Positions 3,726-57,997 of a stretch of 64,000 nt of DNA are shown one piece after another. The DNA is from a bacterium (lineage in GTDB: Bacteria; Patescibacteriota; Patescibacteriia; UBA9934): positions 20,247 to 84,246 of the forward strand of contig JAQCKO010000001.1 in the NCBI GenBank assembly GCA_027592325.1, given 5' to 3'. The position numbers were made by a program, and so were the translations under genes. Positions within the stretch are counted from its first letter, which is position 1. The number at the start of each line of letters is the position of its first letter. The notes below the pieces were generated by a model that was not told where the DNA came from, ran no database searches, and saw only the letters and a program-made list of their open reading frames with translations.

Positions 3726-3812
3726 GATTTGCATTCAATACAAAAACCCACTCCTGCGAGTGAGTCTTTGTATTGAAGCTCGATTGTTAATTGCTATTTC
3801 AGCTGTCCGCGA

Positions 3813-3845
3813 AAATCGATTATTTCGACGGGAAATAATCGATTT
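3813..3845 (-). terminator. Perfect 14-bp stem hairpin downstream of rpsI (AAATCGATTATTTC-GACGG-GAAATAATCGATTT), likely operon terminator
   Basis: A perfect inverted repeat directly after the last gene of the ribosomal cluster. The U-tract on the minus strand is short (TT), so the call is moderate. Confidence 0.45.
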
Positions 3846-3866
3846 GCAGCGCATCTGGAAAACAAT

Positions 3867-4632: not shown

Positions 4633-4633
4633 A

Positions 4634-33063: not shown

Positions 33064-34059
33064 CTAAAATGGATGAAGCAAATTATGACGTCTTGACTGT
33101 TTTTCCGTTAATCGGCTTCGAAGCGCAGCACCAATCGCCGTCAAGTATAGAAGCACCTCATTTTGCTCGACGAATGGAATGGATAATCGTTCAACTACCG
33201 GAAATACATTTAATGAAAGAGATGTGAGCGTTGACAGTTGATCCGGACCTATCACTCCTGCATCGCCGGCCAGATACAGTCGAGGAATCTCGTACCCTAA
33301 CGAACGAAAATGCGTTACCACGCGCTGTATAGACGATTCGATCAGTTGCATTTCCACTGTATCAACGCGATTATCATGTTTGACGGCATTGTTTGCAGAA
33401 CGTATTGCACCTAGCGGTATAGAACGTGAGAAAAAGAGTCCACCAAAATAATCAAATAAACTTATTGTCGGCCAGTCACTATCTAGCTCAAGCAGCACTG
33501 CCAGTTCATTGTCTTTCAGAGCAACAATTTCACTACCAAAGTGTAAAATTGCACGATAATTGCTAAGCGCCTGCATTTCTATCACGGTCAAATCTACCTT
33601 TGGTACATGCAAAGCGCTCTGTATGTGGCCAGTATCTTCTCGTTCAGCCATGTACACGTCAAGGAGTAGGTAGTCATTCACACGTGCCGATTCTTCGATA
33701 GAGATGACGGCATCAGCGGTTTCTATAGGTGATCGACGCGCGACAGCCTGTAAAAGGTCGGCTTGAAACTGTACCTCAGACAGGCCTGATTTACACCAAA
33801 TACCCATGGTATACATACGGGAATTTGGCATCGATGCAATGGCGGAAATACGTCCGAGCGAACCTAGAAATGGCTCCAATGTTCTTAGAACTTCTTCTCC
33901 ATGTTGAATACGCCCGTCAACAATCATGCCTTCTGGAATAGGAATAGTCTGAAGCGCATGAATCGAACCTTTATTTGCAAGGACGGCGCATCGAACGCTT
34001 TGATCTGTAAATTGGATGCCAACAGTTTTTCCTCCCATATAGGGCATATTTAGCCCCAT
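33064..34059 (-). CDS. pilM: PilM-like type IV pilus assembly protein (actin-like ATPase fold), divergent
   Basis: 331 aa. Last gene of the pilus operon. N-terminal GIQFTD in place of the GIDIG phosphate-1 motif. Assignment rests partly on context. Confidence 0.5.
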   Translation of the reverse strand: MGLNMPYMGGKTVGIQFTDQSVRCAVLANKGSIHALQTIPIPEGMIVDGRIQHGEEVLRTLEPFLGSLGRISAIASMPNSRMYTMGIWCKSGLSEVQFQADLLQAVARRSPIETADAVISIEESARVNDYLLLDVYMAEREDTGHIQSALHVPKVDLTVIEMQALSNYRAILHFGSEIVALKDNELAVLLELDSDWPTISLFDYFGGLFFSRSIPLGAIRSANNAVKHDNRVDTVEMQLIESSIQRVVTHFRSLGYEIPRLYLAGDAGVIGPDQLSTLTSLSLNVFPVVERLSIPFVEQNEVLLYLTAIGAALRSRLTEKQSRRHNLLHPF

Positions 34060-34071
34060 TATACCATGAGG

Positions 34072-34572
34072 CTATCGCGTGAGAGAGATCGAAGAAGTAT
34101 TCTCAGATTCGCAGGCTTGAATAGTAATCGAGCCAGTCGTTGCCTTAGTGATGACGTATCCTGTTGTTCCTGCAGTCCAAGCAGTTGCACCTTGTGGACT
34201 AATTGGCATGGAACCCATGTATCCCTCCGTAACTAATCCACTCAAATCGGCACAGTGTGTATCACTCGCAACAGTTGCATCACATGTGTCGTCATCACAG
34301 CCGGTTGAATCCGTACCAATCATATATATTTGTGCGGCTGTCATATTATCTTTTATCTCTGTCAAATAATCGCCGCCATTATCTACCTGATCAATCTTAA
34401 TCGCATGAAGCAGCTCAGCGATATCAGAGAAGCGCCGAGCGTCACGTGCATCTTGAAATCGTGTACCTGGGTCAAGCGCCGCAAATACCACAGCCGCAAG
34501 GACGGCAAGAATAGAGATGACAATTAATAATTCAACGAGCGTGAATCCTTTTTGTGAAGAAAATCTTTTCAT
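34072..34572 (-). CDS. Type IV major pilin (prepilin N-terminal methylation motif)
   Basis: Start at MKRFSSQKG|FTLVELLIVISILAVLAAV. Cleavage after Gly, Phe+1, Glu+5. A C-terminal Cys pair (CDDDTC...C) for a disulfide loop. ~166 aa. Confidence 0.75.
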   Translation of the reverse strand: MKRFSSQKGFTLVELLIVISILAVLAAVVFAALDPGTRFQDARDARRFSDIAELLHAIKIDQVDNGGDYLTEIKDNMTAAQIYMIGTDSTGCDDDTCDATVASDTHCADLSGLVTEGYMGSMPISPQGATAWTAGTTGYVITKATTGSITIQACESENTSSISLTR

Positions 34573-34606
34573 AGATATGATTGGAAGTATTTTACCATAG
34601 GTGCGA

Positions 34607-35038
34607 TCAATCAATCTCACTCCAACTGGTGATATCTACCGACGAACCACTGACAGAAATTGCTGCAGATGCATTACGCACGTAGCCATTATTATCCGAT
34701 TCGACTGTAATTGTGCATGATGACGAGCATGGCGTTGCAGAGATAACAATCGTGCAATCAGCATTTCCCACACTTATGGCTCCGCCTGAATACGATGTGT
34801 CACGAGAAATACGTAACATTGCTTCATGAACACACGACTCTGCCGCTCCAATCGCATGGCCAGAAGCACGCGTCCCCTCCCCTAGCTCAATCGATCCAAT
34901 GGTCAAAAACACAAGACTTGATGTAACCACGAGTACAAGCGCTGTAAGTACCACAATACCTACCGTTGCCGCTGCGCCACGCGTATCAGACCTCAAGCGG
35001 GATACGAATAGCTGTTTGAAATTCTTCAACATAGTCAA
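34607..35038 (-). CDS. PilX-like pilus assembly protein (N-terminal PilX_N-type hydrophobic segment, no Glu+5)
   Basis: 143 aa. RG-AAATVGIVVLTALVLVVTSSL. Confidence 0.45.
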   Translation of the reverse strand: MTMLKNFKQLFVSRLRSDTRGAAATVGIVVLTALVLVVTSSLVFLTIGSIELGEGTRASGHAIGAAESCVHEAMLRISRDTSYSGGAISVGNADCTIVISATPCSSSCTITVESDNNGYVRNASAAISVSGSSVDITSWSEID

Positions 35039-35504
35039 AAAATGGTGAATTAGATGAGTTTATCGCTTCTAAAGTGTACTCGACCAAAACGATTCCTGCA
35101 TCATCAGCACTTGTAAGATTCGTGAAAACGAGATTCGTCACACGAACACGACCGGTTGTTAATTGTGTTGTTACGCCATTTATTCCTATTTGTAACGATC
35201 CATCATCTTCTGTCAGACTAAAGACCGTTGGATCTTCGCCGGAATCAACCATCGCGAACCGAAGCACTCCTGGATCAACGTCGAATGTTGAGCTTCCGAC
35301 CGTAATACTTGCTGCATGTCGGGCTGCATACGACAGTTTTGCCTGTATGATCGCGGCATTGTAGGCAACTTCAGCGAGCACCTCTGATTTTGCGCGATTT
35401 CGTGTCAGCGTTACAACATACTGCGTAGTAGCGATGAGGACAGAGCTCACAATCGCGACGTACAAAATCATCTCTACAAGGGTTGATCCACGCTTATTCA
35501 ACAT
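34986..35504 (-). CDS. Minor pilin / pseudopilin (prepilin-type)
   Basis: 172 aa. MLNKRG|STLVEMILYVAIV with Glu+5. Confidence 0.65.
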   Translation of the reverse strand: MLNKRGSTLVEMILYVAIVSSVLIATTQYVVTLTRNRAKSEVLAEVAYNAAIIQAKLSYAARHAASITVGSSTFDVDPGVLRFAMVDSGEDPTVFSLTEDDGSLQIGINGVTTQLTTGRVRVTNLVFTNLTSADDAGIVLVEYTLEAINSSNSPFFDYVEEFQTAIRIPLEV

Positions 35505-38319
35505 AGGAAATTGTCACATCTTCGAGCACCGGTGATGCCGATGTTGTTCCTGTCATATAGGCTTTCCACTGAAACCACTGCGTTCCACTTGTACCCGAAT
35601 GTGTCGCGAGCGAATCTCCACTTGTAGTGAATGTTGTTGCCGGGGTTCCATCTGACCCAACCCAAAGCGCATCGGCAAGCTCCGCCTCCGATGACGCTGT
35701 TCGAATACGAAATACAATATCGCCCGTCCCCGATTCCGTCCACTCAATCAATTGCCAGCTTGCAGAGGTTGATCCAGAATCATACGGTTGTGATGTGAAA
35801 TTGCCCTCATACGCATAGTCAGAAATGCTTCCTGGACCGAGTATCTGTAACTCAAGCGCATCATTCGCTGAGGCAACGTATGCATAGGTGCCGTCGTGGA
35901 AGACCCCTTGACCCCAATCATTCAAATCATACGTCACTTGCTGAGTCATAGAACCAGAAGAAACCGTCCAGCGTTGAAATTCATCATCTGTGTCCTCTGA
36001 TGCAATATAAATCGCCGCCCCACCACTTTCAACAAAGATATCCCAAATATCACCGGCAACATCGGCCGTTGTGAGCTCAGCAGGTGATCCGGGTGTTGAA
36101 ATGTCAAATTGATGAATTTCCGGATCAGCACTTAAAGTTCTTCCAACGTATAAGATCTCATTTGTGCTATCCACCTCAATTTCGAAGGCATCTGCAGCAC
36201 CAGTCAAATCTTGAGAAGAGCTTGTCAAAGAGGCCGGTGTTGACCAATCAAAAATCCATAACTCATTTGATGCGCCCGCACCATACATATAATCATCGTA
36301 AAATTTGATGCGTCGAATGTGCGTTCCGGTATTAACTGAATCCACAAATGAAGGGCTGGCGACACTCGATACATCGATAAGAAAAACTTCGTCCGCGGTC
36401 GATGCAAATCGTCCTAGCGTCACATAATTGCCTGATTTATCGAGTCCAATGCCATCTGAAGCCCCAGATGCGTCATAAAACCCCGCGCGCGTAGGAGATG
36501 ATTTCGTGGAAATGTCAATAATATCAAGCTCACGATTATTATGCGTTGTGGCTAAATAGGCGTAATTTCCATCAACCACCAAGTCATTCACATATGCACC
36601 AATTTCAAACCATCCCGTTAAAGAAGGTGTCGACGGAGTAGAAATATCGTAAATCAGAAACTCTGGCCCCGATGCGTCAGGATACGTTCCAATGTAAGCG
36701 TAATCGCCAGACACAACGATCGGACGTGCATTCGCTGTTCCAGAGATATTAGCCGATCCTATACTCGATAATACCGCCCATCCCCCTGTAGATGGCCCCA
36801 TTACCACAAGTTCACCGCTTCCATCTGAAGTGACATAAAAAATGTAACTTCCATAATCTGCAATATCGAGCGGCTGAGCGGCCAAATCGATGTTTTCATC
36901 TTCTGTGAGTCCATCAAGATCAATGATTTGCAAGTCTTCGGACGCATTTGTAGATGCAACAAATGCACGATCCGTATTCGGGTCAACAGAAAATGCCCTA
37001 TGTGTATTGCCTGTAATTAATGAGTCACCCACAGCAAACGATGATGCTGGATTGGTAATATCAATTTCGTAAAAACTTGCAATCGTCCCGCTTCCATCTC
37101 GCGAGACATAAAGAATCGTGCCGCTCACAGCAATGTGATAACTTGTTTGAGTTCCAACTAAATCAAGATCTGCAACCTCAGAATAATCAGATAAATCCAT
37201 CACCGCGAGCTCCTTTGATGTATTAGCCGTTGCAATATATGCATAGCTACTGTCAAGGGCGATGTCGCGCACACGGGCCGTTGCATCATAAGAACCGAGG
37301 AAGGACGGTGAGGCCGGGCTTGCAAGACTGTAAACAAATACTTCATCACCAGATGCATCGTTTGCTCTACCAACGACAAGTGTTGAATCAATAATCGCAA
37401 CGTCGTATGCATCCTCCGTCCCAGAAATATCGACGCTACCTACTTCTGTCATCGTGAGCAAATTTACAATTACAACCTCTTTTGCATCATCGCCGGTTAC
37501 CACATATCCATACTCTGTATAAATCGCAAGGTCATACGGCGTATACGAGCCAAGCTCAATTCCATCAATAAGGGTAGGTGCCACATTTTCAACGTTTGAC
37601 ACATCGTAACGATTTAATTCATCCCCAGTTGTTGCATCGAGCAGTACAAGGAGCTCATCCTGCGACTCCCATAGCAATAGCTCGATAGGAGCTGCACTCC
37701 CCGGGAGTGAGACAGTATACAATTCTTCAAGTGTAGACCAATCTGTTGAAACAGTCCGTAGGTCAATATCGCCGTCTCCTGATGCTGCCTGAGCCGTTGA
37801 CCCAAAAAAACTTCCATTATTAAATTCTGAGAGTAAATCTTGTGTCCACGTTTGTACTGCTGCAAAGTTGTACACGTAAAACACATGCGAGAGATTTACC
37901 AGTTTACTCGCCAATGTATACCAATTGATTGAAATTGTGATCTTTTTTGTTGCAGAATCTGCGACTCCACTTGCAGCAATATCCCCCGTAAGACTACCCG
38001 TTCGTGTGACATCTTCAACCAAAATACTGCGTGTATAGTTAGTAAGCACGCTTTCTGAACCAGATGCAAGTGCATAGCTTCCTAAAGCGGTATCTAAATG
38101 ATATGTTCCAGATGAAATGGTAGAAAAGTCTTGGTATGCAACAGAACGCACTCCCTCTATGCCTTCTTGAAGTAACCCAGAAGCAGCCACATAGTCAACC
38201 CCCTGTTTTCCTGATGCCGTAGCACGAAAAAGTGCACCAACCCCCGCTGATGCAAGCAAAGCGAAAATAGCGATGGCGAGTAGTATTTCGAATAATGCTA
38301 ACCCACGCTCGTCCTTCAT
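35494..38319 (-). CDS. Giant prepilin-like protein with a C-terminal beta-propeller (LVIVD-type repeats); putative pilus tip adhesin (PilY1-analogous)
   Basis: 941 aa. MKDERG|LALFEILLAIAIFALL (Gly, Glu+5), followed by many repeats of the form Y[AD][VI]A...D.YAY[IV]A...(S/T)...EL..(I/M)D, typical of beta-propeller blades. Confidence 0.65.
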   Translation of the reverse strand: MKDERGLALFEILLAIAIFALLASAGVGALFRATASGKQGVDYVAASGLLQEGIEGVRSVAYQDFSTISSGTYHLDTALGSYALASGSESVLTNYTRSILVEDVTRTGSLTGDIAASGVADSATKKITISINWYTLASKLVNLSHVFYVYNFAAVQTWTQDLLSEFNNGSFFGSTAQAASGDGDIDLRTVSTDWSTLEELYTVSLPGSAAPIELLLWESQDELLVLLDATTGDELNRYDVSNVENVAPTLIDGIELGSYTPYDLAIYTEYGYVVTGDDAKEVVIVNLLTMTEVGSVDISGTEDAYDVAIIDSTLVVGRANDASGDEVFVYSLASPASPSFLGSYDATARVRDIALDSSYAYIATANTSKELAVMDLSDYSEVADLDLVGTQTSYHIAVSGTILYVSRDGSGTIASFYEIDITNPASSFAVGDSLITGNTHRAFSVDPNTDRAFVASTNASEDLQIIDLDGLTEDENIDLAAQPLDIADYGSYIFYVTSDGSGELVVMGPSTGGWAVLSSIGSANISGTANARPIVVSGDYAYIGTYPDASGPEFLIYDISTPSTPSLTGWFEIGAYVNDLVVDGNYAYLATTHNNRELDIIDISTKSSPTRAGFYDASGASDGIGLDKSGNYVTLGRFASTADEVFLIDVSSVASPSFVDSVNTGTHIRRIKFYDDYMYGAGASNELWIFDWSTPASLTSSSQDLTGAADAFEIEVDSTNEILYVGRTLSADPEIHQFDISTPGSPAELTTADVAGDIWDIFVESGGAAIYIASEDTDDEFQRWTVSSGSMTQQVTYDLNDWGQGVFHDGTYAYVASANDALELQILGPGSISDYAYEGNFTSQPYDSGSTSASWQLIEWTESGTGDIVFRIRTASSEAELADALWVGSDGTPATTFTTSGDSLATHSGTSGTQWFQWKAYMTGTTSASPVLEDVTISYVE

Positions 38320-38768
38320 AATGTTGAGATGGTTCCGATGGCATTAATCGTCACCGCCACTGTTCGCGATGTATTCTCGTCTGTAATCGTCAGAGTTTGC
38401 GCCCCTGAAGCTGCATCGCCATTTCCGAAATCAAATCGTATGGTATTACCACCGCTATTTGAAATGGAAAGCTGGCCAGAAAGCGTATGTACTTCATCGT
38501 AATTTGTATCGCGTGATCCGTATGTTGCTCCTTTAAAAAGAGTATAGGATGTTGAATCGATCCGCACACTCCACATGTCATCTGATTCGCCATACATCGT
38601 CCTTAGCTGTGCTCTGCGTAATACTTCGATCAATCCATCCTCTGCTAGTTCAAGCTGATGGTTAGCGAATGCACGACCGGTGAGTGCCGTACTTATAACA
38701 GATAGCGTGGTAATGAGCGCGACCACGATAATGACCTCGACGAGGGTGAAGCCAAACTGTTTCGTCAT
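38316..38768 (-). CDS. Pseudopilin / minor pilin (GspH/FimT-like)
   Basis: 150 aa. MTKQFG|FTLVEVIIVVALI. Confidence 0.7.
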   Translation of the reverse strand: MTKQFGFTLVEVIIVVALITTLSVISTALTGRAFANHQLELAEDGLIEVLRRAQLRTMYGESDDMWSVRIDSTSYTLFKGATYGSRDTNYDEVHTLSGQLSISNSGGNTIRFDFGNGDAASGAQTLTITDENTSRTVAVTINAIGTISTL

Positions 38769-39859
38769 ATTGTGACACTGCCAGTGATTGAATAAATTGG
38801 CGTCAAAATAGAAAGTGCCAATAAGCCGACAAAAAGACCAAGCGCAATAAGGAGAACTGGTTCAATCATTGATGCAAGATTTTTCGATAAGACTTCTATA
38901 CGCTCCTCATAATAATCTGCCAAATAATTGAGTGTTGCTCCCAAATGCCCTGACCGCTCTCCGACTGCCGCCATACGCCTCAACATTTTCGGATACAATT
39001 TTGGGGCAATTTCCAAACTTTCCGACAGTGTCATGCCGGTTTTTACGCGTTCAAGTGCGCGCTTCGCCATCTGTTTATATGCGACATTCCCAAGCGCATC
39101 GCTCGTTACTTTAGTTGCCTCGACAATCGGCGTACCGCTCTCAAGTAGTGTTGAAAGGATTCGACAAAACCGTGCTCGCTGATAGTCGTTCACAAAGCTA
39201 TTGAGTCCTGGTATGTATAAATATGTTCTATCAATATACGGCCGTGCAAATGGCAGACGTGACAACATCACACTCCCAATCAAGACAGCAATCGTGAAAA
39301 CAGTAATAAGAAGGCCATGCCGATCAAAAAGGTTTGCCGTCCAGATAAGCGCACGTGTTGTAATTGGTAACTCAACATTAAGCGAAGTAAAAACATCGGT
39401 AATTTGTGGCAAAACAAAATTTGCTATTCCAAAAAACAAGGCAAGTGACGCAGTAAATACAAGTCCAGGGTAAAGCATAGACGATTGAACCTGTCGCTTA
39501 ATTTTCAAGTCACGCTCCATTTGAATAAATACACGCTCTAAATTCATTGCAAGGGTTCCAGACTGTTCTCCAATGATAATCGAGCTCACAATAAATGGCT
39601 TAAAAATACGTGGTTCAAGCTGTAATGCATCGCCTAGGCTCGCCCCTGCATGCACACGCTTTGATAGACGTTCTAAAACTGGTCGCAATGCACTCCGTTT
39701 GGGTGATTGATCAAAGAGAATATCAAGCGACTCCGGGAGCGTCAGTCCAGCAGAAAGCATAACGGACAAGTTTTTTAAAAACTGAACTAAGTCGACTCCT
39801 TTAACGCCTGTCGTTATTTGAAATGCGAGAATCTTTTTAAGCAGGGTTTTGTTCGCCAT
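38765..39859 (-). CDS. pilC: Type IV pilus platform protein PilC (GspF family)
   Basis: 364 aa. Two GspF repeats with 3 TM. 4-nt overlaps on both sides. Confidence 0.85.
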   Translation of the reverse strand: MANKTLLKKILAFQITTGVKGVDLVQFLKNLSVMLSAGLTLPESLDILFDQSPKRSALRPVLERLSKRVHAGASLGDALQLEPRIFKPFIVSSIIIGEQSGTLAMNLERVFIQMERDLKIKRQVQSSMLYPGLVFTASLALFFGIANFVLPQITDVFTSLNVELPITTRALIWTANLFDRHGLLITVFTIAVLIGSVMLSRLPFARPYIDRTYLYIPGLNSFVNDYQRARFCRILSTLLESGTPIVEATKVTSDALGNVAYKQMAKRALERVKTGMTLSESLEIAPKLYPKMLRRMAAVGERSGHLGATLNYLADYYEERIEVLSKNLASMIEPVLLIALGLFVGLLALSILTPIYSITGSVTI

Positions 39860-39860
39860 A

Positions 39861-41552
39861 CTACTTCGTTACGCGCAATACTTCTTCAAGTGCAGTCACA
39901 CCAGCAAGCGCCTGCTCGACGCCATGCTGAAGCATCGTCACCATTCCTTCCTGAATAGCCACCTCTTGTATTTCATCACTGTTTTTTTGCTGCATGATTG
40001 CAACGCGTACGGCATCAGTTACTTCAAGGATTTCAAAAATCCCAACGCGACCACGGAATCCTGTTTGACCACAAACTGGACACCCTTTTGCATGAAAAAG
40101 CCTTAATTCTGCGAACGGGCGACCAGCAAGCTGCTTTTCGATTGCCGCCTTCACCTCTGGACGTGATTCGATCAATTGCAACTCTTCAGCACTAGCTTGC
40201 TTACTGTACAAACATTTTCTACATAGCTGCCTCACAAGTCGCTGTGCAACGACACCAATCATTGTTGAGCTGATCAAAAACTCCTCTACCGACATATCGC
40301 GAAGTCTTGGAAAAGCGGTTGCCGCATTGTTTGTATGAAGCGTTGAAAGCACTAAATGGCCTGTCAGTGCTGCGTTAACGGCAATATCGGCTGTTTCTGA
40401 ATCACGAATTTCTCCGACCATAATAATATCGGGGTCTTGACGCACAATTGAACGTAACCCTTTTGCAAATGTCAGCTTTGTTTTTTCATTGACTTGAATT
40501 TGATTTACCCCATCAATATCGTACTCTACAGGATCTTCAATGGTCGAAATATTGACATTGCGTTTATTGAGCATTTTTACGCCAGCATACAATGTCGTCG
40601 TTTTACCACTCCCCGTCGGTCCGGTGACTAAAATCATTCCCCATGGTTTCTTAATTGCATCCGCGAACAAGTCAAGTTCCCGAGTGTGGAATCCCAAATC
40701 ACGTAAGCTAAATTGTCGTGAACGCTCAGAAAGCAGTCGCATCACGACTTTTTCTCCGTCAGTGACAGGGACAATTGAAACACGAATTTCAATATCTTCC
40801 TTTCGCTTTGATTCATACGATATCTTTCCGTCAAGGGCGGACTGATGTTCATCAGTTGGTAATCGAGATAACACTTTTATACGCGTCACCATATGGTCGT
40901 GCAGTTTTTTCGGCACGGTCACGACATCGTGCAATAATCCATCAACTCGAAAACGTACTAAGGTCTCTTCATCCTCTGGTTCAATATGTACGTCTGATGC
41001 TCTCGCTTGGTACGCACGTTCTATAAGTTCCTCAACCAACTGAATGACAGCCTGACCGGAAGCATCGATATCTTTTCCACCTGCACGCTCAATATAATCT
41101 GCAAGGACCGTCTCTGCATCCTTTTCAAAAAGGTGATAATGCGATGTTAAATCTCGCGGCGTAACAAATACGTAACGAATTTCATGCCGAGTAAATTTTT
41201 CAAGAAGACTTTTTGTCTCTAGATCGCCAGGATGTGAGGTTGCAACGCGTATAAATCCTTCATGCAATTGAAGCGGAAAGACATGATTCGCCCTTGCAAA
41301 ACTTTCAGGAATAAGCCGAAGAACGTTACGATCAACCTGAAAATCTGCAAGCTCTAAAAACGGTACACTTAACATATCGGCAATTAATTGTCCTATTTGA
41401 CGATCTTCAAGAGCATCTGATTCAACTAAAACAGTGTAAAGATCCTTTTGTTCTTTTTTTGCCGTTTCACTTGCAGCAGTGAAGGTCTCTTCCGTAACTG
41501 CTCCAGACGTTACAAGTGCTTTTTTGTATTGTTCCTCCGAAAGTAATGACAT
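39861..41552 (-). CDS. pilB: Type IV pilus assembly ATPase PilB (GspE family)
   Basis: 563 aa. Walker A LVTGPTGSGKTTT, Asp box, His box, and a tetracysteine motif CPVCGQTGFRGRVGIFE. Confidence 0.9.
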   Translation of the reverse strand: MSLLSEEQYKKALVTSGAVTEETFTAASETAKKEQKDLYTVLVESDALEDRQIGQLIADMLSVPFLELADFQVDRNVLRLIPESFARANHVFPLQLHEGFIRVATSHPGDLETKSLLEKFTRHEIRYVFVTPRDLTSHYHLFEKDAETVLADYIERAGGKDIDASGQAVIQLVEELIERAYQARASDVHIEPEDEETLVRFRVDGLLHDVVTVPKKLHDHMVTRIKVLSRLPTDEHQSALDGKISYESKRKEDIEIRVSIVPVTDGEKVVMRLLSERSRQFSLRDLGFHTRELDLFADAIKKPWGMILVTGPTGSGKTTTLYAGVKMLNKRNVNISTIEDPVEYDIDGVNQIQVNEKTKLTFAKGLRSIVRQDPDIIMVGEIRDSETADIAVNAALTGHLVLSTLHTNNAATAFPRLRDMSVEEFLISSTMIGVVAQRLVRQLCRKCLYSKQASAEELQLIESRPEVKAAIEKQLAGRPFAELRLFHAKGCPVCGQTGFRGRVGIFEILEVTDAVRVAIMQQKNSDEIQEVAIQEGMVTMLQHGVEQALAGVTALEEVLRVTK

Positions 41553-49663: not shown

Positions 49664-51685
49664 CTACTTCTTTTTCTTATCGCCATTATAGAGCCATGGC
49701 TTTTGGAACAGCTTAAATTGACTTGCGAATTTGAGGAATACACGCGTTACAAGAACTGCCGTAAGCATAGAGATAATAATACCGAGCGCGAGTGTGAGGG
49801 CAAATCCCTTCACAAAGCTGGTACTCATAGCGAACAGAATAATCGCCGCAATGAGCGTGGTTGCATTTCCATCACGAATGGATGTCCAGGCCCGTTTGAA
49901 TCCTTCGTTGATTGCAGAAGGAAGATCACGCCCACTGCGAAGCTCTTCTTTCAATCGCTCAAAGATAAGCACATTCGCATCAACGGCCATTCCGATCGAA
50001 AGGATGAATCCAGCGATTGACGCAAGGCTCAGAGTCACGCCAAGCCATTTGTAGAGGGCGAGGTTCGTCACGGTGTACACGCCAAGCGCCAGCACAGCAA
50101 TGACTCCAGCAAGGCGATAATAGAGAATCATGAAGGCAGTGACCAAAATGAGCCCAGCGATTGCGGCTTGAATACTCCGATCAAGTGAAACCTGCCCAAG
50201 GGTTGGTCCAACGGTTCGTTGAGAAAGCAGATCGATCGGCACCGGAAGTGCCCCTGCATTTAGGCGCTGCGCAAGAAGTTTTGCTTCATCGAGGGTAAAT
50301 CCACCAGTAATTGTTGCCTCACCTCCGTAAATCGCTTGCTGAACAATAGGGGTCGAAATCGCCTCTCCATCAAGGAAGATTCCTATAACCTCTCCAATAT
50401 TCGCTTCGGTGATTTGGCCAAACAGCTCTCCCCCAACCGCGTCAAAATCTAAAACGACGAATGGTGTTCCAGTGAATTGATCGAAGGCTACTGAAGCACC
50501 TCGGACATTCCCTCCAGAAAGTTCGGTATTCTCCCAAGGATCAATGCTGAGTACATCTCCGGCCGTTGTCCATGGCATTTCAATATGCGCAATTTCATAT
50601 GCCGTTTTTGAACGAGTATCCTCTCGGAATATGAGATGATATCCGAATTGCGTTTCAACAAGCTCAGAAATCTCTCCGTCAGAAAGATCATCAAAAAGCG
50701 CATTTTCAAATGGTTCGACCATCATGCCACGAGTCACCCAGTCAAGGCTTCCGCCGACTGTTGCCGACGCTGTGTCATCACTTTGCTCTTCAGCCACCTC
50801 TGCAAAATTCTCTTTCGTCAAATTGGAAAGCAGTTCTTGCGCGAGCAGCTGTGCCTCTATTTTTGTTCGATCATTTGTACATCCCTCTGAATCTTGGTGA
50901 CAAAGCAAAATATGTGACCCAAGCACCTCTTCGCGTGCTTCAGATCGGAGGTAATTTACAATGTGAATTGATGACGTTCCTTCATATAATCCATCAACGA
51001 CACCTGGCTGCAGGCGACGATTCGAAGCGAATTCATCAGCGAGTCCATCAAAAATCGGATGCGTATCATCAATGAATCCAATATATCCACCTAATTGAGC
51101 GGTGGTGATATCAACCGAAAGTTCCCCTGCAATGACAGAAAAATCTTCTCCAGCAAATGCACGGTCAAGAACGGCAAGGGCATCTTCGCGCTCAATAGTA
51201 TTTGCGGAATCAATCTCTGCTTGCTGTTCGTCAGTGACTTCAAGGTCAACCTCTTCAAGAGGTGTTTTGAACTCCAGAATAGGCGTTTCCCCAATTTCCT
51301 GAATGGCATCGCTAATATCGAAGACTCCGGCAAGCTCAACAATGACACGATAGTGATCGCCCTGAATATTCGTTTGTACGACAGGTTCCGAAACACCATA
51401 TGCGTTCACACGGCGCTCGATCACATCGCGAACGCCCTCCAGTGCATTTGCGCGATCTGACTCCGGAATAGTCGTCATATCAGCCTCGTACACCAAATGC
51501 GCTCCGCCTTGAAGGTCGAGACCTAGCCGAAATGGTTCGTCGTTGAGCGGAAGTGCGCTACCCAAAACCTGATTCCAAGGTCCAGGAAAAGCGACGGAGA
51601 GAAAGAAAAAAGACAACAATAGAACACCTACGACACTCGCCGTCAGTTTTCGCATCAATTTCGATCGTTTCGTTGATTTTGCCAT
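49664..51685 (-). CDS. secD: Protein translocase subunit SecD with an inserted parvulin-type (PpiC) domain in the periplasmic region
   Basis: 673 aa. SecD TM bundle at the C-terminus. The internal segment GGSLDWVTRGMMVEPFENALFDLSDGEISELVETQFGYHLIF matches the parvulin PPIase signature. Confidence 0.85.
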   Translation of the reverse strand: MAKSTKRSKLMRKLTASVVGVLLLSFFFLSVAFPGPWNQVLGSALPLNDEPFRLGLDLQGGAHLVYEADMTTIPESDRANALEGVRDVIERRVNAYGVSEPVVQTNIQGDHYRVIVELAGVFDISDAIQEIGETPILEFKTPLEEVDLEVTDEQQAEIDSANTIEREDALAVLDRAFAGEDFSVIAGELSVDITTAQLGGYIGFIDDTHPIFDGLADEFASNRRLQPGVVDGLYEGTSSIHIVNYLRSEAREEVLGSHILLCHQDSEGCTNDRTKIEAQLLAQELLSNLTKENFAEVAEEQSDDTASATVGGSLDWVTRGMMVEPFENALFDDLSDGEISELVETQFGYHLIFREDTRSKTAYEIAHIEMPWTTAGDVLSIDPWENTELSGGNVRGASVAFDQFTGTPFVVLDFDAVGGELFGQITEANIGEVIGIFLDGEAISTPIVQQAIYGGEATITGGFTLDEAKLLAQRLNAGALPVPIDLLSQRTVGPTLGQVSLDRSIQAAIAGLILVTAFMILYYRLAGVIAVLALGVYTVTNLALYKWLGVTLSLASIAGFILSIGMAVDANVLIFERLKEELRSGRDLPSAINEGFKRAWTSIRDGNATTLIAAIILFAMSTSFVKGFALTLALGIIISMLTAVLVTRVFLKFASQFKLFQKPWLYNGDKKKK

Positions 51686-52357: not shown

Positions 52358-53356
52358 ATGGCGCAACTTCGAAACAAACTATCAAAGGAAGATTGCCTTA
52401 AAAAACTCGCTGCGGAAGATTTTCGTCGCGTGTCTATTTCGTTTTATCGGTATGTGCGCATAGAAGACCCCCAATCCTTCCGAGACATCCTTTGGACCGA
52501 ATGGAATGATCTTGGAATTTTTGGACGTATTTATGTTTCAAAGGAAGGGATCAATGCCCAATTTTCTGTTCCAGAACACAATGTTGAGCGACTTCGAGCC
52601 GCGGTAGATGCACGTCCCGAGCTAAACGCCGTTCCGTTCAAAATTGGTGTAGAAGAAAATGGTGTGAGTTTTTGGAAACTCACTATTAAGGTGCGTGAGC
52701 ATATTCTTGCGCATGGAATTGATGATCTCGACATGACCACGGCGGAAGTCGGCGAACATCTTCCAGCAGAATCGTACAATGCCTTCATTGAAAATGGAGC
52801 CACCGTAGTTGATATGCGCAATAAGTATGAGAGTGACATTGGGCATTTTGAAGGAGCAGTACGGCCAAAGGCGCAAACATTCCGTGAAGAACTTCCAGAG
52901 GTTTTGGATGCGCTTAAAGGAAAAGAAGAAGAACCCGTTCTTTTGTACTGCACTGGGGGCATTCGCTGCGAGCCAACGAGCGCGTATTTGAAGCAACATG
53001 GATTCAAAGAAGTATATCAGCTAAATGGCGGGATTATTCAATATTCACACGAGGTGAAAGAAAAAGGCCTCGATTCCAAATATATTGGAAAGAATTTCGT
53101 TTTTGATGGTCGGCGTGACGAAACAATTACCGGCGATGTTCTCGGTACTTGCGCGATTTGTCATGCACCGAGCGATGAGTATATTGACTGCGCCAATATT
53201 GCCTGTCATGTGATGTTTATTGAATGCGGAGCTTGTCAAGAAACGCTTGAACAATGCTGTAGCGACGAATGCAAACGTGTGAACAACCTTCCTGCAGCAG
53301 AACAAAAAGCCCTCCGCCGAGGAAAAAAGGCGAAGTTTGTTTATAGTAGAACGTAG
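52358..53356 (+). CDS. trhO: Rhodanese-domain tRNA uridine(34) hydroxylase (YceA/TrhO, UPF0176)
   Basis: 332 aa. Rhodanese active Cys in CTGGIRCE. C-terminal Cys-rich tail. Confidence 0.8.
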   Translation: MAQLRNKLSKEDCLKKLAAEDFRRVSISFYRYVRIEDPQSFRDILWTEWNDLGIFGRIYVSKEGINAQFSVPEHNVERLRAAVDARPELNAVPFKIGVEENGVSFWKLTIKVREHILAHGIDDLDMTTAEVGEHLPAESYNAFIENGATVVDMRNKYESDIGHFEGAVRPKAQTFREELPEVLDALKGKEEEPVLLYCTGGIRCEPTSAYLKQHGFKEVYQLNGGIIQYSHEVKEKGLDSKYIGKNFVFDGRRDETITGDVLGTCAICHAPSDEYIDCANIACHVMFIECGACQETLEQCCSDECKRVNNLPAAEQKALRRGKKAKFVYSRT

Positions 53357-53411: not shown

Positions 53412-54026
53412 CTACTTCCTCCTCGCCACCAACACCCCATGATCCATATCTAAAATCTCGATGCCTTCATACTTCCCTGATGCCCGTACATAGGCATCAA
53501 ATTTCGCGACTTTGTCTGGGTAGTCGAGCATATTATCGGCAACAATAATCGATCCAGACCGAAGCAGCGGCTCGGCCAATTTCAAATAGACATGATACTG
53601 ACTTTTATTCGCATCTAGGAAGAGAAGATCGATAGGGCGGGCGATTCCTACAAGTGCTGATTCGATTTCCGCTTCAATAAGTTCTACATTCGCTGCTTCT
53701 ACCGCTTCAAAATACTCTCTTGCCTCCTTTGCCTTATACGGTTCCTTTTCAATGGTGAGAATATTTCCCCCATAACTCTCTGCCGCTTTCGCCATCCATA
53801 ATGTGGAATACCCGACAGAAGTTCCCAGCTCCACAATATGAGCGGGTTGCTGTGTTCTGATCAGTTGCGAGATCCACTCTGCGGTTTTACGTCCAATCAT
53901 CCAAAAACCAACATTATGGTCCACACCCCACTTTTTTTTATACTCGTCAGAAATTCCCGTTTCACGGAATGCTGCATCGAGTCGCTCTAAACGCGAAGTG
54001 ATTTCTTGAAAACGTTGTTCATTCAT
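53412..54026 (-). CDS. Class I SAM-dependent O-methyltransferase (family 3, caffeoyl-CoA OMT-like)
   Basis: 204 aa. IVELGTSVGYSTLW ... LLFLDANK. Confidence 0.8.
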   Translation of the reverse strand: MNEQRFQEITSRLERLDAAFRETGISDEYKKKWGVDHNVGFWMIGRKTAEWISQLIRTQQPAHIVELGTSVGYSTLWMAKAAESYGGNILTIEKEPYKAKEAREYFEAVEAANVELIEAEIESALVGIARPIDLLFLDANKSQYHVYLKLAEPLLRSGSIIVADNMLDYPDKVAKFDAYVRASGKYEGIEILDMDHGVLVARRK

Positions 54027-54296: not shown

Positions 54297-54385
54297 TCAC
54301 GCCTTCTGAAATGGTTCCCGTAGGTTTTTCGTCTTCTCCATCGTGCCTTCGCAAAGAGCCATTTCAGAAGGCGTCTTTTTTTTCA
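54297..54385 (+). terminator. Strong intrinsic terminator (15-bp perfect stem, long loop, T8)
   Basis: Overlaps the 3' end of the minus-strand DUF1653 gene. Confidence 0.55.
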
Positions 54386-54594
54386 ACAGTTTTTTTAAAC
54401 CTCGGACGGCCATTCACTTTCTCAAGAAACATCGTTTTTGGCCTCGCCCAGAAGCGACCATCTTGGCCTCGGTAGATGACCAGCATCTCCCTCGTTTCTG
54501 TTTGCTCGGCCTCAAAAAGGACTTCGTAAATTCCACCTTTATAGTGCTTGTACGTGCCAGGTTCGATCATACTTGACAAGTATAGCCGAGACAA
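54364..54594 (-). CDS. DUF1653-domain protein
   Basis: 76 aa. YKHYKGGIYEV core typical of DUF1653. Confidence 0.65.
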   Translation of the reverse strand: MSRLYLSSMIEPGTYKHYKGGIYEVLFEAEQTETREMLVIYRGQDGRFWARPKTMFLEKVNGRPRFKKTVEKKDAF

Positions 54595-54616
54595 CTAACG
54601 TATTGCCACTTCGTTT

Positions 54617-54686
54617 CAGAGCCGAAGCTGAGTGGTCAGCGCCGACATGGCAGTCGGAGGTCGCAGGTTCGAATCCTGCCGGCTCT
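54617..54686 (+). tRNA. tRNA-like gene with canonical acceptor, D and T arms (GGTTCGAATCC) but a 6-nt anticodon loop (ATGGCA); identity undetermined, possibly GGC-like
   Basis: AGAGCCG/CGGCTCT acceptor, GCTG-AGTGGT-CAGC D-arm, GCAGG-TTCGAAT-CCTGC T-arm. The only consistent anticodon stem (CCGAC/GTCGG) leaves a 6-nt loop. No encoded CCA. Confidence 0.55.
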
Positions 54687-54688
54687 AT

Positions 54689-54760
54689 TGCATCTGTAGC
54701 TCAACTTGCTAGAGCAGCGAACATGGTTCGAAGGTCAACGGTTCAAACCCGGTCAGATGC
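54689..54760 (+). tRNA. tRNA-like gene / possible tRNA pseudogene: D-loop lacks GG, and the anticodon arm is 2 nt short (CGAA-CATGG-TTCG)
   Basis: GCATCTG/CAGATGC acceptor, GCTC-AACTTGCTA-GAGC D-arm, AACGG-TTCAAAC-CCGGT T-arm (one mismatch). 2 nt after the previous tRNA. Confidence 0.4.
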
Positions 54761-54774
54761 ATTCTTCCGCGCAT

Positions 54775-54797
54775 GCGCGTTTTCTTCGTCCGTCATT
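54775..54797 (+). terminator. Short palindromic hairpin CGCGCATGCGCG + TTTTCTTCG after the tRNA pair
   Basis: Likely a tRNA transcript terminator. Confidence 0.4.
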
Positions 54798-55097
54798 TCG
54801 AAAGATTTGGCGGGCGTTTTCCTTTACAAAATCTGCAAATTTTGGCAAACTTTTCATTGCCGGCAGGCTAGGGAGAAGAACATCTGAAGCGCACTCCTCC
54901 CTCCACGTGACGGACCACGGCACCGGCCCTTACGACTCACCTCTCCCTGAGGTGGGTCGTCTTCTTTTTTTAAGTGTCGCTTTGCCCGACTTCTTGCCAC
55001 ATGTAATCGCTCAGTGAATCCGCCCTGCATGTCAACATCTGGCCCAAGCGATTGACCTTCGCTCTCAGCTCGGTGGCACAAGAATGTTTTGCATACA

Positions 55098-55207: not shown

Positions 55208-57997
55208 CTAGGATTTTCCGTGGCAATGTTTGTACTTTTTAGGCGTTCCATCTGATTTTGTCGCTCCACATGGACAAGAGTCATTACGGCCGACTTTTTC
55301 GCTCTCGGTTGTATTTGCCGCTCCTTGTGCAATAGTCCTTTGAAGCGCGCGGCGGAAGGTTGTTCCCTTCCCTGCCTCTGACTTCTTTGCTCCCTGAAGA
55401 ACGACTTTTGATGTTTCGATGATACTCGGAGCGAGCTGTATGACTTCACGCGCGGCCATGACCTGGTCAAGAATTTTAAAACTATTGTAAACCACTTCAC
55501 GCGCGATGCTTTGCTGCAGGCCTTCATACAACTGAAAGGCTTCTTTTTTGTATTCAATAAGCGGGTCGCGCTGACCGTATCCACGCAGCCCAATTGATCG
55601 CCGCAAATAGCGCATCGAATCAAGATGCCGCACCCAAGTATTATCGATCGCACGCAAAATGAGCGTGCACATCATATTCTGCAGACGTTCATCATTGTTG
55701 AACGTCTCTTTGGCCGCTTCCGCACGCTTACGCGCTTCAGCCATGAAAGCCTCTATGACTTCGGTGCGCTGACGAGCTAGCTCTTCTTGATCCTTCGAAA
55801 ACTCACCAAGCGATGTACGAATCTTTGACTTCACCTCTTCTGGCAAGGTCATAATGGTCCCAAGTACCTCGAGGATTTCCTTTGGATCGTAATCCGGCGC
55901 ATCTCCGCCGCGGAAGACAGATGGGACATCAACTTGCTGACCGGTATGAAAGAGAACCACACGCTCAATTTCTTCTTCTGTCATGCGCAAAATCTCGCTC
56001 GTTGGATTGATGGTTCCTTCCAAAACACCATTTCGCTTTGTATAAATCCCCTCACGATGCTTATTCAGTACATCATCATATTCAAGCACATGCTTACGCG
56101 AATCAAAGTTCCGCCCCTCAACACGCATTTGCGCCTTTTCAAGCGAGTTTGTGATGATTTTACTCTCAATCGGGACGTCAGCCGGCATATTAAGTGCCGA
56201 AAGCATGCCCTTTGCGCGATCTGAACCGAAAATACGCATGAGCTTATCGTCCATGGAAACATAAAATTGCGTACTCCCCGGGTCTCCCTGACGACCAGAA
56301 CGTCCACGTAACTGATTATCTATCCGTCGCGATTCATGCCGCTCGGTTCCAATCACATGCAATCCACCAAGTGCCTTTACTTCTTCTTCACGCTCTTTTT
56401 CTTTCGGCTGACCACCAAGCACAATATCAACGCCACGACCGGCCATATTGGTCGCGACCGTCACCGCGGCTTTGCGTCCTGCTTGGGCAACAATTTCTGC
56501 CTCACGTTCGTGATTTTTTGCATTTAAGACTTCATGCTTCACTCCCGCCTTTTTAAGTGCGGCTGAAACAACATCATTATCTTCAATCGAAACCGTACCA
56601 ATTAGCACCGGCTGACCAAGCTCCTGCTTTTCTTTTACATCCTTAATGATAGCTGAAAGTTTCCCTTCCAAACTTTGATACATTTTATCTGACGCATCGA
56701 TGCGGGCAATTGGTTGATTCGTTGGGATCTCAACGACATCGAGCTCGTAAATCTTTGAAAATTCCTCCGCTTCCGTTGCCGCCGTACCTGTCATCCCAGA
56801 GAGTTTTTCATATATGCGGAAATAGTTCTGAAACGTGATCGTCGCAAGTGTTCGGCTTTCACGGCGAATTTCGACCCCCTCTTTTGCCTCAATTGCCTGG
56901 TGAAGTCCATCACCAAAACGACGTCCTTCCATAATACGACCCGTAAATTCATCAACGATTTTCACCTCACCGTCTTGCACTACATATTCACGATCCTTTT
57001 CATAAACGGCATGCGCCCGAAGTGCCTGCTCGGCATGATGCACATATTCAAGTCCCTTGTCGGTGTAGAGATTCTCCACACCAAGCCGCTTTTCAAGCAG
57101 GGCAATTCCAGCGTCCGTAAATGTTGCCGCGCGCATTTTTTCGTCAACATTATAATGTACTTCAAGCTTGAGATCGGTGATAAGACTAGCAAATCGGGTA
57201 TATAAATCTGCCGATTCCTCTGCTGGCGCTGAAATAATCAGCGGCGTTCGAGCTTCATCGATAAGAATTGAGTCGATTTCATCAATCAAGGCATAGTGCA
57301 GCTCACGTTGAACGCGGGCCTCAATACGTGTGGCCATATTGTCACGAAGGTAATCAAAGCCGAATTGATTATTCGTCCCATAGGTAATGTCTGCCGCATA
57401 GGCTTCTTTGCGTTCTGCTGGCCGCAAAAAATCCATTTGTATGCGAAACGAACCTATGTTGTCACGCGCTTGATCGTCTTCGCTATCCGCCTTAAAACTC
57501 TCATCATACAAATAGCCGCCTTCATGCTGAATCACCCCAAGAGTCAGCCCTAGAAAACCAAAAATCTGCCCCATCCAAACGGCATCACGCTTTGCAAGGT
57601 AGTCATTAACCGTTACCACATGCACGCCTTTCCCGGTAAGAGCATTCAAATAAATAGGGAGTGTTGAGGTAAGCGTTTTCCCTTCTCCCGTACGCATTTC
57701 CGCAATCCCAGCCTGGTGCAGGACGATTCCTCCCATGAGCTGTACATCATAATGACGCTGCGAAAGCGTACGCTTCGCCGCTTCACGCACAACAGCAAAG
57801 GCTTCTGACATCAAACTATCCGTCGTCTCACCTTTTTCAATGCGTGCTTTAAATTCATGAGTCTTTGCGCGTAAATCGCTATCGCTAAGCGTTTCGATTG
57901 TCCCTTCAAGCTTGCCAATCTCCTCTGCCTGCCCGCTCAAGCCATCAAGAATTTTCTTATTCTGGTCGCCAAAAATCGCCTTTAGAAGTCGGTTCAT
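55208..57997 (-). CDS. secA: Preprotein translocase ATPase SecA
   Basis: 929 aa. DEAD-like motor domains. C-terminal zinc-binding CPCGATKSDGTPKKYKHCHG. Confidence 0.95.
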   Translation of the reverse strand: MNRLLKAIFGDQNKKILDGLSGQAEEIGKLEGTIETLSDSDLRAKTHEFKARIEKGETTDSLMSEAFAVVREAAKRTLSQRHYDVQLMGGIVLHQAGIAEMRTGEGKTLTSTLPIYLNALTGKGVHVVTVNDYLAKRDAVWMGQIFGFLGLTLGVIQHEGGYLYDESFKADSEDDQARDNIGSFRIQMDFLRPAERKEAYAADITYGTNNQFGFDYLRDNMATRIEARVQRELHYALIDEIDSILIDEARTPLIISAPAEESADLYTRFASLITDLKLEVHYNVDEKMRAATFTDAGIALLEKRLGVENLYTDKGLEYVHHAEQALRAHAVYEKDREYVVQDGEVKIVDEFTGRIMEGRRFGDGLHQAIEAKEGVEIRRESRTLATITFQNYFRIYEKLSGMTGTAATEAEEFSKIYELDVVEIPTNQPIARIDASDKMYQSLEGKLSAIIKDVKEKQELGQPVLIGTVSIEDNDVVSAALKKAGVKHEVLNAKNHEREAEIVAQAGRKAAVTVATNMAGRGVDIVLGGQPKEKEREEEVKALGGLHVIGTERHESRRIDNQLRGRSGRQGDPGSTQFYVSMDDKLMRIFGSDRAKGMLSALNMPADVPIESKIITNSLEKAQMRVEGRNFDSRKHVLEYDDVLNKHREGIYTKRNGVLEGTINPTSEILRMTEEEIERVVLFHTGQQVDVPSVFRGGDAPDYDPKEILEVLGTIMTLPEEVKSKIRTSLGEFSKDQEELARQRTEVIEAFMAEARKRAEAAKETFNNDERLQNMMCTLILRAIDNTWVRHLDSMRYLRRSIGLRGYGQRDPLIEYKKEAFQLYEGLQQSIAREVVYNSFKILDQVMAAREVIQLAPSIIETSKVVLQGAKKSEAGKGTTFRRALQRTIAQGAANTTESEKVGRNDSCPCGATKSDGTPKKYKHCHGKS

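Follow-up and report, generated by a model that had tools for sequence, protein, structure and literature searches.

Two tRNA-shaped elements, herein T1 and T2, lie head to tail on the forward strand of a 64,000-nucleotide stretch of DNA (the window; contig JAQCKO010000001.1, positions 20,247 through 84,246), and we propose, with a probability of roughly 0.55, that they are former tRNA genes that now encode small, tRNA-shaped RNAs with no part in decoding. On sequence grounds, both appear to be tRNA bodies that have lost the anticodon and the charging identity, and in which the sequence changes fast while the shape is conserved. The window is chromosomal DNA from an uncultivated member of the Patescibacteria (Candidate Phyla Radiation, CPR); its SecA is 56 to 65% identical to those of metagenome-assembled genomes (MAGs) of Patescibacteria, Uhrbacteria, and Kerfeldbacteria. 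Separated by a 2-nt spacer, T1 and T2 are the only tRNA-type matches within the 64 kb according to ARAGORN, Rfam, and a custom covariance model. An earlier note on this DNA had described two tRNA-like genes here and recommended covariance-model scoring. Against the Rfam tRNA model RF00005 (gathering score 29 bits; E-values for the whole window), T1 scores 52.8 bits (E = 1.6e-8) and T2 42.9 bits (E = 8.9e-6), and both have the cloverleaf and the 7/5 acceptor/T helix of the tRNA structural family. The positions originally assigned to the elements were shifted by one base, the true starts lying one base rightward (Table 1), and the promoter-like site placed at 54572 through 54600 was off by one as well; the remaining details of that description are all correct on rereading of the sequence.

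T1 (AGAGCCG AA GCTG AGTGGT CAGC G CCGAC ATGGCA GTCGG AGGTC GCAGG TTCGAAT CCTGC CGGCTCT A) forms 21 stem pairs, all of them Watson-Crick, and carries the motif GGTTCGAATCC at 54666 through 54676; its minimum-free-energy fold is the cloverleaf (z = -3.1). The 6-nt loop ATGGCA on a CCGAC/GTCGG stem, with position 38 absent, had been noticed at the outset and is borne out by the sequence, Rfam, and ARAGORN. At default settings ARAGORN calls T1 only, as "tRNA-???" with a two-base anticodon (gg), and also lists tRNA-?(Pro|Ala)(gg); in place of the canonical 7-nt loop that such a check might have returned, the program itself gives a 6-nt loop.

T2 (GCATCTG TA GCTC AACTTGCTA GAGC A GCGAA CATGG TTCGA AGGTC AACGG TTCAAAC CCGGT CAGATGC A) is likewise predicted to fold as a cloverleaf. 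Its anticodon stem consists of a G.A mismatch at 27:43 plus four pairs, and the energy model closes the arm further, to five pairs and an AUG triloop. Both the arm that is 2 nt short (4-bp stem, CATGG loop) and the D-loop without G18-G19 agree with the first description, as does the occurrence of CATGG in both anticodon arms. A decoding tRNA has a 7-nt loop, U33, a purine at position 37, and three anticodon bases; the loops found here are 6 nt (T1) and 5 nt (T2), and arms capped in this way cannot present a normal anticodon. Neither element encodes CCA, nor do many bacterial tRNA genes.

Table 1. Features of the T1-T2 locus and its neighborhood, in window coordinates
Feature	Position	Strand	Details
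TrhO, tRNA U34 hydroxylase	52358-53356	+	NCBIfam equivalog, 241.6 bits vs cut-off 170
O-methyltransferase, PF01596 family	53412-54026	-	
DUF1653 small gene	54367-54570	-	Divergent from T1
Promoter-like site TTGACA-17-TAACGT	54573-54601	+	~16 nt upstream of T1; read from sequence
T1, tRNA-like RNA, apparently derived from tRNA-Ala(GGC)	54618-54687	+	70 nt; A73; CCA not encoded
T1 anticodon arm CCGAC-AUGGCA-GUCGG	54642-54657	+	16 nt; 5 bp; 6-nt loop
T2, tRNA-like RNA, apparently derived from tRNA-Arg	54690-54761	+	72 nt; A73; CCA not encoded
T2 anticodon arm GCGAA-CAUGG-UUCGA	54717-54731	+	15 nt instead of 17; 5-nt loop
Window-specific palindromic hairpin CGCGCATGCGCG, then TTTTCTT	54768-54786	+	Directly 3' of T2; read from sequence
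Conserved hairpin with U-run, CGUCCGUCA..UGGCGGGCG UUUUCCUUU	54787-54825	+	Likely terminator or 3' trailer
Second promoter-like site TTTACA-17-CAAACT	54823-54851	+	Precedes RNA X
RNA X, structured	54846-54970	+	~115 nt; core ~54858-54970; strong terminator 54932-54970
secA	55208-57997	-	Convergent with T1 and T2

Related loci were sought through SecA in reference-genome and JGI metagenome collections and in a large protein database. Reference-genome contigs yielded 80 loci (SecA identity ≤65%) and metagenome contigs 47 (≤55%); ARAGORN on all fetched loci, and tRNA and custom covariance models on a subset of them, found no tRNA-like cluster beside secA. The sole close relative, P0002 (SecA 91% identical), came from the protein database and corresponds to a 5.1-kb Logan contig, L130; a second sample, reached via DUF1653 homologs, contributed an identical 909-bp contig and nothing further. 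L130 keeps the secA...DUF1653 arrangement, and its promoter is followed by three elements (A, B, and C), the same terminator hairpin, and the same downstream RNA, and then by a fourth element, D. L130_A is the positional ortholog of T1, with a 16-nt anticodon arm (CUGGC AAUGCG UCCAG), and L130_C is the ortholog of T2, with a 15-nt arm. Comparison of orthologous loci, a check proposed in the earlier note, has thus shown the same noncanonical arms, and not ordinary tRNAs, at the only homologous locus that has tRNA-type genes in this place. Because arm lengths are the same in both species, the loop shortening would predate their split.

The two further elements of the sister locus are less regular. 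L130_B (4606-4713, reverse strand), inserted between A and C, is a class-II-like tRNA look-alike. It has the acceptor stem GGAUAGG/CCUAUCC and G73; its anticodon stem runs to 7 bp and closes the 5-nt loop CCGGU, its variable arm measures ~30 nt, and its T arm is normal. It escapes both ARAGORN and Rfam at gathering score, and R1, the custom covariance model built from the four elements, gives it 24.5 bits. In L130_D (3962-4122, reverse strand; 45.6 bits), 95 nt stand where the anticodon loop would be, less than the length of a group I intron, and they match no intron in Rfam. A promoter-like TTGACA and a ~200-nt leader come before this element, which adjoins a 23S_rRNA_IVP (Avd-like four-helix-bundle) gene (3397-3960, forward strand); the ~800-bp block that holds D and the IVP gene is absent from the window. 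No further members were found with R1 in 39 sources. The cluster is also absent from outgroups with 66 to 69% SecA identity (L131, L132, L135, L136, and the P0005 gene map), in which the order murC-murB-hpf-secA-(IVP)-DUF1653-...-O-methyltransferase-trhO-secDF is kept; since the block persists there without it, the cluster is best seen as acquired by the lineage that comprises the window and L130, and not as an old tRNA locus.

The same comparison disposes of one mundane explanation, in which an error of sequencing or assembly produced the short loops. Such errors are a general possibility in metagenome assemblies, and that is the extent of the case for them; against it, the Logan and ENA assemblies of the locus are 100% identical to the window over 54300 through 55300, the NCBI MAG encodes identical SecA and DUF1653 proteins, neither anticodon loop contains a homopolymer run, and the arm lengths recur in an independent species recovered from other samples. 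Identical assemblies together with the shared arm lengths exclude a slip in transcription or assembly, and we regard an artefact as barely conceivable.

The ancestry of the two elements can be read from what they retain. The canonical tRNA-Ala(GGC) arm is CUUGC-AUGGCAU-GCAAG in the contigs L044 and L089 and in Escherichia coli (the E. coli reference was checked and is a 100% match to annotated tRNA-Ala genes). Removal of position 38 from the Ala(GGC) loop AUGGCAU gives the T1 loop, AUGGCA, and L130_A retains an Ala-type acceptor start (GGGGCU) and an Ala-type D arm; T1 appears to descend from tRNA-Ala(GGC). T2, for its part, appears to descend from a tRNA-Arg. The acceptor stem that it has in common with L130_C, GCAUC(U/C)G/C(A/G)GAUGC, is of tRNA-Arg type and occurs in E. 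coli tRNA-Arg(ACG) (verified) and, as GCACCCG, in the tRNA-Arg(UCU) of L044; an unusual G27.A43 mismatch is common to T2, L130_C, and the L044 tRNA-Arg(TCT).

The chief features by which the ancestral synthetases would know these RNAs have been lost. G3:U70 is the determinant for alanyl-tRNA synthetase (AlaRS), and A20 and C35 are identity elements for arginyl-tRNA synthetase (ArgRS); G3:U70 is absent from T1, T2, L130_A, and L130_C. It was lost by different single changes, giving A3-U70 in T1 and G3-C70, adjoining G4.U69, in L130_A. Position 20 is C in T2 and U in L130_C, A20 being lost in both, and the discriminator is A in the former and U in the latter. Set beside canonical tRNA-Ala(GGC) and tRNA-Arg, T1 and T2 are alike in the 7-bp acceptor stem, 4-bp D stem, 5-bp T stem, UUCRAAY T loop, and AGGUC variable loop; they are unlike in the loops of 6 and 5 nt, the loss of G3:U70 and A20, the A8 of T1, and a faster evolution. 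Across phyla, tRNA-Ala(GGC) differs at 12 of 76 positions, compared with 27 of 70 between T1 and L130_A; T1 and T2 appear to evolve several times faster than real tRNAs. As a separate observation, a canonical tRNA-Ala(GGC) gene lies directly downstream of secA and on the same strand in three contigs whose SecA is 47% identical (L044, 12691-12767; L089, 6691-6767; L115, 6691-6767); L044 is labeled Peregrinibacteria and has its tRNA-Arg(TCT) 9 kb away. These are the two isotypes from which T1 and T2 appear to descend; the genes are oriented differently, however, and the arrangement may be coincidence.

The earlier note had also listed noncanonical decoding among its options, and here the evidence runs against it. 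T1 and T2 might be doublet- or frameshift-reading tRNAs, or T2 a tRNA-His(AUG), as the two-base anticodon reported for T1 and the relaxed ARAGORN calls of T2 and L130_C as tRNA-His(atg) could be taken to mean; six-membered loops in engineered tRNAs do decode, if inefficiently. The T1 loop, however, is not conserved in its ortholog (AUGGCA vs. AAUGCG). A 7-nt loop is indeed listed for T2, at the relaxed threshold only, but it is obtained by opening the 31:39 pair, which covaries between the two species (A-U vs. G-C), and the result has C33 and A34; the "His" fold is also without G-1. With the Ala and Arg identity elements gone, no amino acid is defined, and the long open reading frames (ORFs) of the window read normally with table 11. 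Decoding of either kind is accordingly a very improbable function for the pair.

Selection on the fold is the evidence that weighs most. At four-fold degenerate sites of secA, 48% of positions differ between the window and L130 (Jukes-Cantor distance 0.78), and unconstrained sequence at this divergence should be near unalignable. T1 and L130_A differ at 27 of 70 positions (39%) and T2 and L130_C at 18 of 72 (25%). Among the 21 pairs of T1/L130_A, seven carry double compensatory changes, three carry one-sided changes compatible with G.U, and one is broken; in T2/L130_C, three of 21 are doubly compensated and one is G.U-compatible, 27:43 is unpaired in both, and 50:64 is A.G in T2. Pairing is retained in 41 of 42 pair cells (T1/L130_A) and 39 of 42 (T2/L130_C). 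Four of the 10 double compensatory changes fall in anticodon stems, with two in that of T1/L130_A, and the CAUGG loop is identical in T2 and L130_C on a stem that changes from GCGAA/UUCGA to AUGAG/CUCAG, with a purine-purine mismatch at 27:43 in both.

Sliding the 3' partners by one to three columns lowers pairing from 93 to 98% to 17 to 50%. When the observed number of stem substitutions was placed at random, none of 200,000 trials retained as many pairs as T1/L130_A, and for T2/L130_C the simulation gave P = 4e-5 to 1e-3. Unpaired positions (D loop, T loop, and variable loop) are 71 to 73% identical, against a neutral expectation of ~52%; selection acts on most tertiary positions as well as on the helices. 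Three G.U pairs in L130_A and one in L130_C would become A.C mismatches on the other strand; because they fit only the tRNA-sense strand, that strand is the selected one, and a function of the antisense strand was rejected on the same ground. Coding by the overlapping ORFs at 54573 through 54887 and 54706 through 55017 was likewise discarded, given the RNA-stem pattern of substitution and a ~110-nt insertion in the span in the sister species. The fold, anticodon hairpins included, thus appears to have been maintained by compensatory evolution after decoding was lost.

These data bear directly on an unlikely alternative, in which T1 and T2 are plain tRNA pseudogenes: a tRNA-Ala(GGC) and a tRNA-Arg gene, each redundant, would have suffered small anticodon-loop deletions and would now be decaying without function. 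Loss of decoding ability and of the synthetase determinants is what this account would expect; the absence of the cluster from outgroups, the fast evolution (39 and 25% difference), and the tertiary losses in the window copies (U8 in T1; G18-G19 and 15:48 in T2) also favor it. A neutral relic, on the other hand, takes up substitutions regardless of pairing, and what we find is 10 double changes and one to three unpaired cells at a distance of 0.78, with 41 of 42 and 39 of 42 pair cells kept in the face of 48% neutral divergence and chance retention rejected by the simulation. The loop deletions are older than the species split, T1 has 21 of 21 Watson-Crick pairs despite ~27 differences from any functional tRNA-Ala, and the promoter and terminator are conserved. 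Because the covariation goes beyond what random substitution yields, simple pseudogenes, doublet decoders, and assembly errors are all unlikely. Of the possibilities first raised for the pair, the tRNA-like noncoding element is therefore the one favored, at the expense of the plain pseudogene (10 compensatory changes at near-saturated divergence), and we found no support for a role as an integration site. T1 and T2 show three attributes of the tRNA-derived regulatory or mimic RNAs, a class set by function and not by sequence that takes in tRNAOther and mascRNA: they are derived from tRNAs, non-decoding, and retained under selection. Their expression is predicted from the promoter-like site and the terminator.

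Several observations nonetheless count against non-decoding RNAs kept for their shape. The tertiary structure is eroded in the window copies: T1 carries A8 in place of U8, which L130_A retains, and T2 has no G18-G19 in its D-loop, an A.G mismatch at 50:64 in its T stem, and A15 opposite C48, L130_C being more canonical at the eroded tertiary and T-stem positions. Outgroups that do without the cluster imply that it is dispensable at the family level, and only two distinct genomes carry it. Finally, no partner protein is encoded nearby, the neighbors being housekeeping genes.

The pair has its own flanking signals. A promoter-like TTGACA-17-TAACGT is present upstream, as first described; its -10 element matches the consensus at only three of six positions, which is why a promoter scan did not list it, and L130 has the identical -35 element with a better -10, TAATAT. 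The start codon of the divergent DUF1653 gene is 3 nt away, and part of the site's conservation may belong to that gene. On the 3' side, the unit CGCGCATGCGCG is a perfect GC palindrome that, together with the TTTTCTT behind it, is absent from L130 (a 20-nt alignment gap); this window-specific insertion has the look of either a small additional terminator or a palindromic element that was inserted. The conserved hairpin that follows is likely the terminator or the 3' trailer of a T1-T2 transcript, and its G.U pairs fit the forward strand only, which marks it as an RNA hairpin. The 47 nt from 54782 through 54828, which comprise this terminator hairpin and the start of the next promoter, show two differences from L130 (four-fold sites, 48%) and are far more conserved than T1 and T2; the stretch may be more than a terminator.

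Such conservation raises the question of whether the hairpin, and not the tRNA-shaped RNAs, is the product that matters. T1 and T2 would then be processing or stability handles, their folds recruiting RNase P and RNase Z to release or stabilize a hairpin RNA (54787 through 54825) that acts as the effector. Parallels are the E. coli 3'ETS-leuZ trailer, tRNAOther of Bacillus cereus, and the tRNA-like/pre-miRNA units of herpesviruses. The two differences in 47 nt, the G.U pairs that mark a forward-strand RNA element, and a precedent for a tRNA-like element that forms part of a larger RNA with a regulatory role (PMC3399842) are in its favor. We nevertheless consider this reading rather improbable: an intrinsic terminator overlapping the promoter of the next RNA is explanation enough for a hairpin with a U-run, two tRNA-like elements (and a third in the sister species) exceed what processing needs, and the conserved anticodon hairpins are left unexplained.

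The next RNA, RNA X, is itself structured. Its outer stem is wholly changed between the window and L130 (CCGG/CCGG vs. GAUCUG/CAGAUC) and its inner hairpin covaries (CGUG-ACGGAC-CACG vs. CGCU-ACGGAA-AGCG), with the segments GCAGGC, AGGGAG/CUCCCU, and GCAC kept. RNA X matches no Rfam family (best score 15.5 bits) and was found only in the window and L130, nine matches to its core in viral contigs being due to chance. Pairing of the T1 and T2 loops with RNA X was considered, and sequence inspection found no complementary site.

If T1 and T2 are non-decoding tRNA-shaped RNAs, a pathway for their production and use can be outlined. The pair would be transcribed from its own promoter to the conserved terminator; RNase P would cleave at the 5' ends, trimming would take away the 2-nt spacer and the 3' trailer, and the CCA-adding enzyme would supply CCA. 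This maturation is plausible because those enzymes read the acceptor/T arm and elbow, not the anticodon. The mature RNAs would build up as tRNA mimics, stable, uncharged, and kept away from the ribosome. They may bind a factor recognizing tRNA shape, or Ala and Arg bodies; candidates are nucleases or toxins directed at tRNA and enzymes of tRNA maturation or modification. That they act on such a factor as uncleavable or unusable competitors is the likeliest mode of action within this explanation, though still a minority prospect; a competitor role would fit the capped loops, the loss of charging identity, the fast turnover, and the extra members B and D in the sister species. More speculatively, and with rather low expectation, T1, T2, and the L130 elements might form a small, fast-evolving family of capped tRNA bodies that serve as decoys or dedicated adaptors outside translation; ex-Ala and ex-Arg tRNAs would be joined, in the sister genome, by the class-II-like B and by D with its 95-nt insert. 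Such a family might engage a toxin that cleaves tRNA and comes from hosts, phages, or competitors, and the family, if real, would be a bacterial counterpart of the viral and eukaryotic tRNA mimics.

A different use of an RNA barred from the ribosome by its capped arm would be to carry an amino acid, charged independently of the anticodon, into a non-ribosomal process such as Fem-type peptidoglycan branching; the non-proteinogenic tRNA-Gly of staphylococci offers a parallel. An intact acceptor stem and T arm, the presence of a discriminator base, murC and murB a few kilobases away, and the class-II-like form of L130_B, whose long variable arm and G73 make up the shape that SerRS recognizes, would suit such carriers. 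Yet no element has G3:U70, A20 is lost, and no anticodon-independent identity element is present; the discriminator differs between orthologs (A in T2, U in L130_C), and the acceptor-stem sequence changes freely. Among the scanned ORFs of the window there are no Fem, MprF, or aminoacyl-tRNA synthetase-like genes, and the murC-murB-secA synteny occurs in relatives without the cluster. Carriers are for these reasons decidedly improbable.

Several known RNAs resemble T1 and T2 in part. The MALAT1-derived mascRNA and the tRNA-like RNAs of gammaherpesvirus-68 form cloverleaves whose anticodon arm is reduced or abnormal. RNase P, RNase Z, and the CCA-adding enzyme carry out their maturation; they are not known to be aminoacylated, and their action lies outside decoding. 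Their origin is eukaryotic or viral, though, with no sequence relation to T1 and T2, and membership in the mascRNA family was rejected (18.6 bits on L130_A with the Rfam model vs. a gathering score of 42.5). In transfer-messenger RNA (tmRNA), the tRNA-like domain is marked by G3:U70, is devoid of an anticodon arm, and is linked to a region that codes for the tag. The window contains no tmRNA according to ARAGORN, and T1 and T2, with a full cloverleaf and no G3:U70, were not assigned to this class (permuted-tmRNA model 14.2 bits vs. 47). YrlA and the other bacterial Y RNA-like RNAs (RF02553) are bacterial noncoding RNAs with a tRNA-mimicking module that tRNA enzymes recognize; they are distinguished by a Ro-binding helix and have no free acceptor end of the kind seen here. 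Membership was again rejected (34.3 bits vs. 69, in a match that spans the T arm of T1 and the D arm of T2), and no rsr/Ro60 gene was seen among the neighboring genes.

The nearest bacterial comparison is B. cereus tRNAOther, an inactivated chromosomal pseudo-tRNA that stands outside translation, is retained, affects physiology, and was proposed to be a tRNA-like structural element (PMC3399842). Like tRNAOther, T1 and T2 are proposed to be tRNA-derived, non-translating, retained elements; unlike it, a single gene that flanks a genomic island and lies inside longer transcripts, they form a tandem pair with a predicted promoter and terminator of their own and a capped anticodon arm, in a housekeeping region. 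Polycistrons of irregular tRNAs and inactive allo-tRNAs have been described from metagenomes and metatranscriptomes, some charged but unused in translation and others inactive (Mukai et al., PMC5389517). These too are clustered tRNA-like genes with nonstandard features, but they have 8/4 or 9/3 geometry or extra loops and 7-nt anticodon loops and lie near toxin-antitoxin genes, whereas T1 and T2 combine the standard 7/5 geometry with shortened loops and have no toxin-antitoxin genes nearby. The specific anatomy seen here (7/5 geometry, loops of 5 and 6 nt, and erased Ala/Arg identity) is shared by none of tRNAOther, the Mukai elements, mascRNA, and the herpesvirus RNAs, and we found nothing specific in the literature on tRNA-like RNAs of Patescibacteria or on 6-nt anticodon loops. 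A phage source is not supported either: pattern scans of viral contigs for T1-type and T2-type arms returned no matches, and BLAST searches of phage genomes with T1, T2, and L130_C turned up nothing beyond generic T-arm or weak tRNA matches.

tRNA-derived RNAs that work outside translation are known from few cases, and seldom can their origin and constraints be read so plainly; here one can enumerate the disabling changes, namely loops shortened by 1 to 2 nt and the erasure of G3:U70 and A20. If expressed, T1 and T2 would be natural tRNA bodies kept for shape alone, in a reduced Patescibacteria genome with little room for junk, and the two short RNAs would provide a handle for finding the readers of tRNA shape in these organisms. 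There is also a consequence for annotation. Genes of this kind pass tRNA covariance thresholds and can be misannotated; ARAGORN labels the sister copies tRNA-Ala and tRNA-His, the latter being L130_C, called tRNA-His(atg) at the relaxed threshold.

Around the locus, the housekeeping neighbors include, besides those in Table 1, SecDF, murC, murB, SHMT, and FolD, with murC and murB a few kilobases away. TrhO, an oxygen-dependent hydroxylase of tRNA U34, adjoins the PF01596 O-methyltransferase, and the two could together make mo5U34; PF01596 is the family of TrmR, the Bacillus methyltransferase that converts ho5U to mo5U. The adjacency of this gene pair to T1 and T2 is probably coincidental, because the pairing is kept in outgroups (L135 and the P0005 locus) that do not have the cluster. 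In the SecD protein of the window (49664-51685, reverse strand), an inserted PpiC-type peptidyl-prolyl isomerase domain (residues ~247 through 354) separates the first P1 segment from the P1 head, an architecture that recurs in the same two relatives. Farther away, a cluster resembling type IV pilus and type II secretion systems (33064-41552, reverse strand) adjoins a 941-residue protein with LVIVD repeats and includes a T2SSE ATPase, a T2SSF platform protein, and a protein with a prepilin N-methylation motif; it is typical of Patescibacteria and unrelated to T1 and T2.

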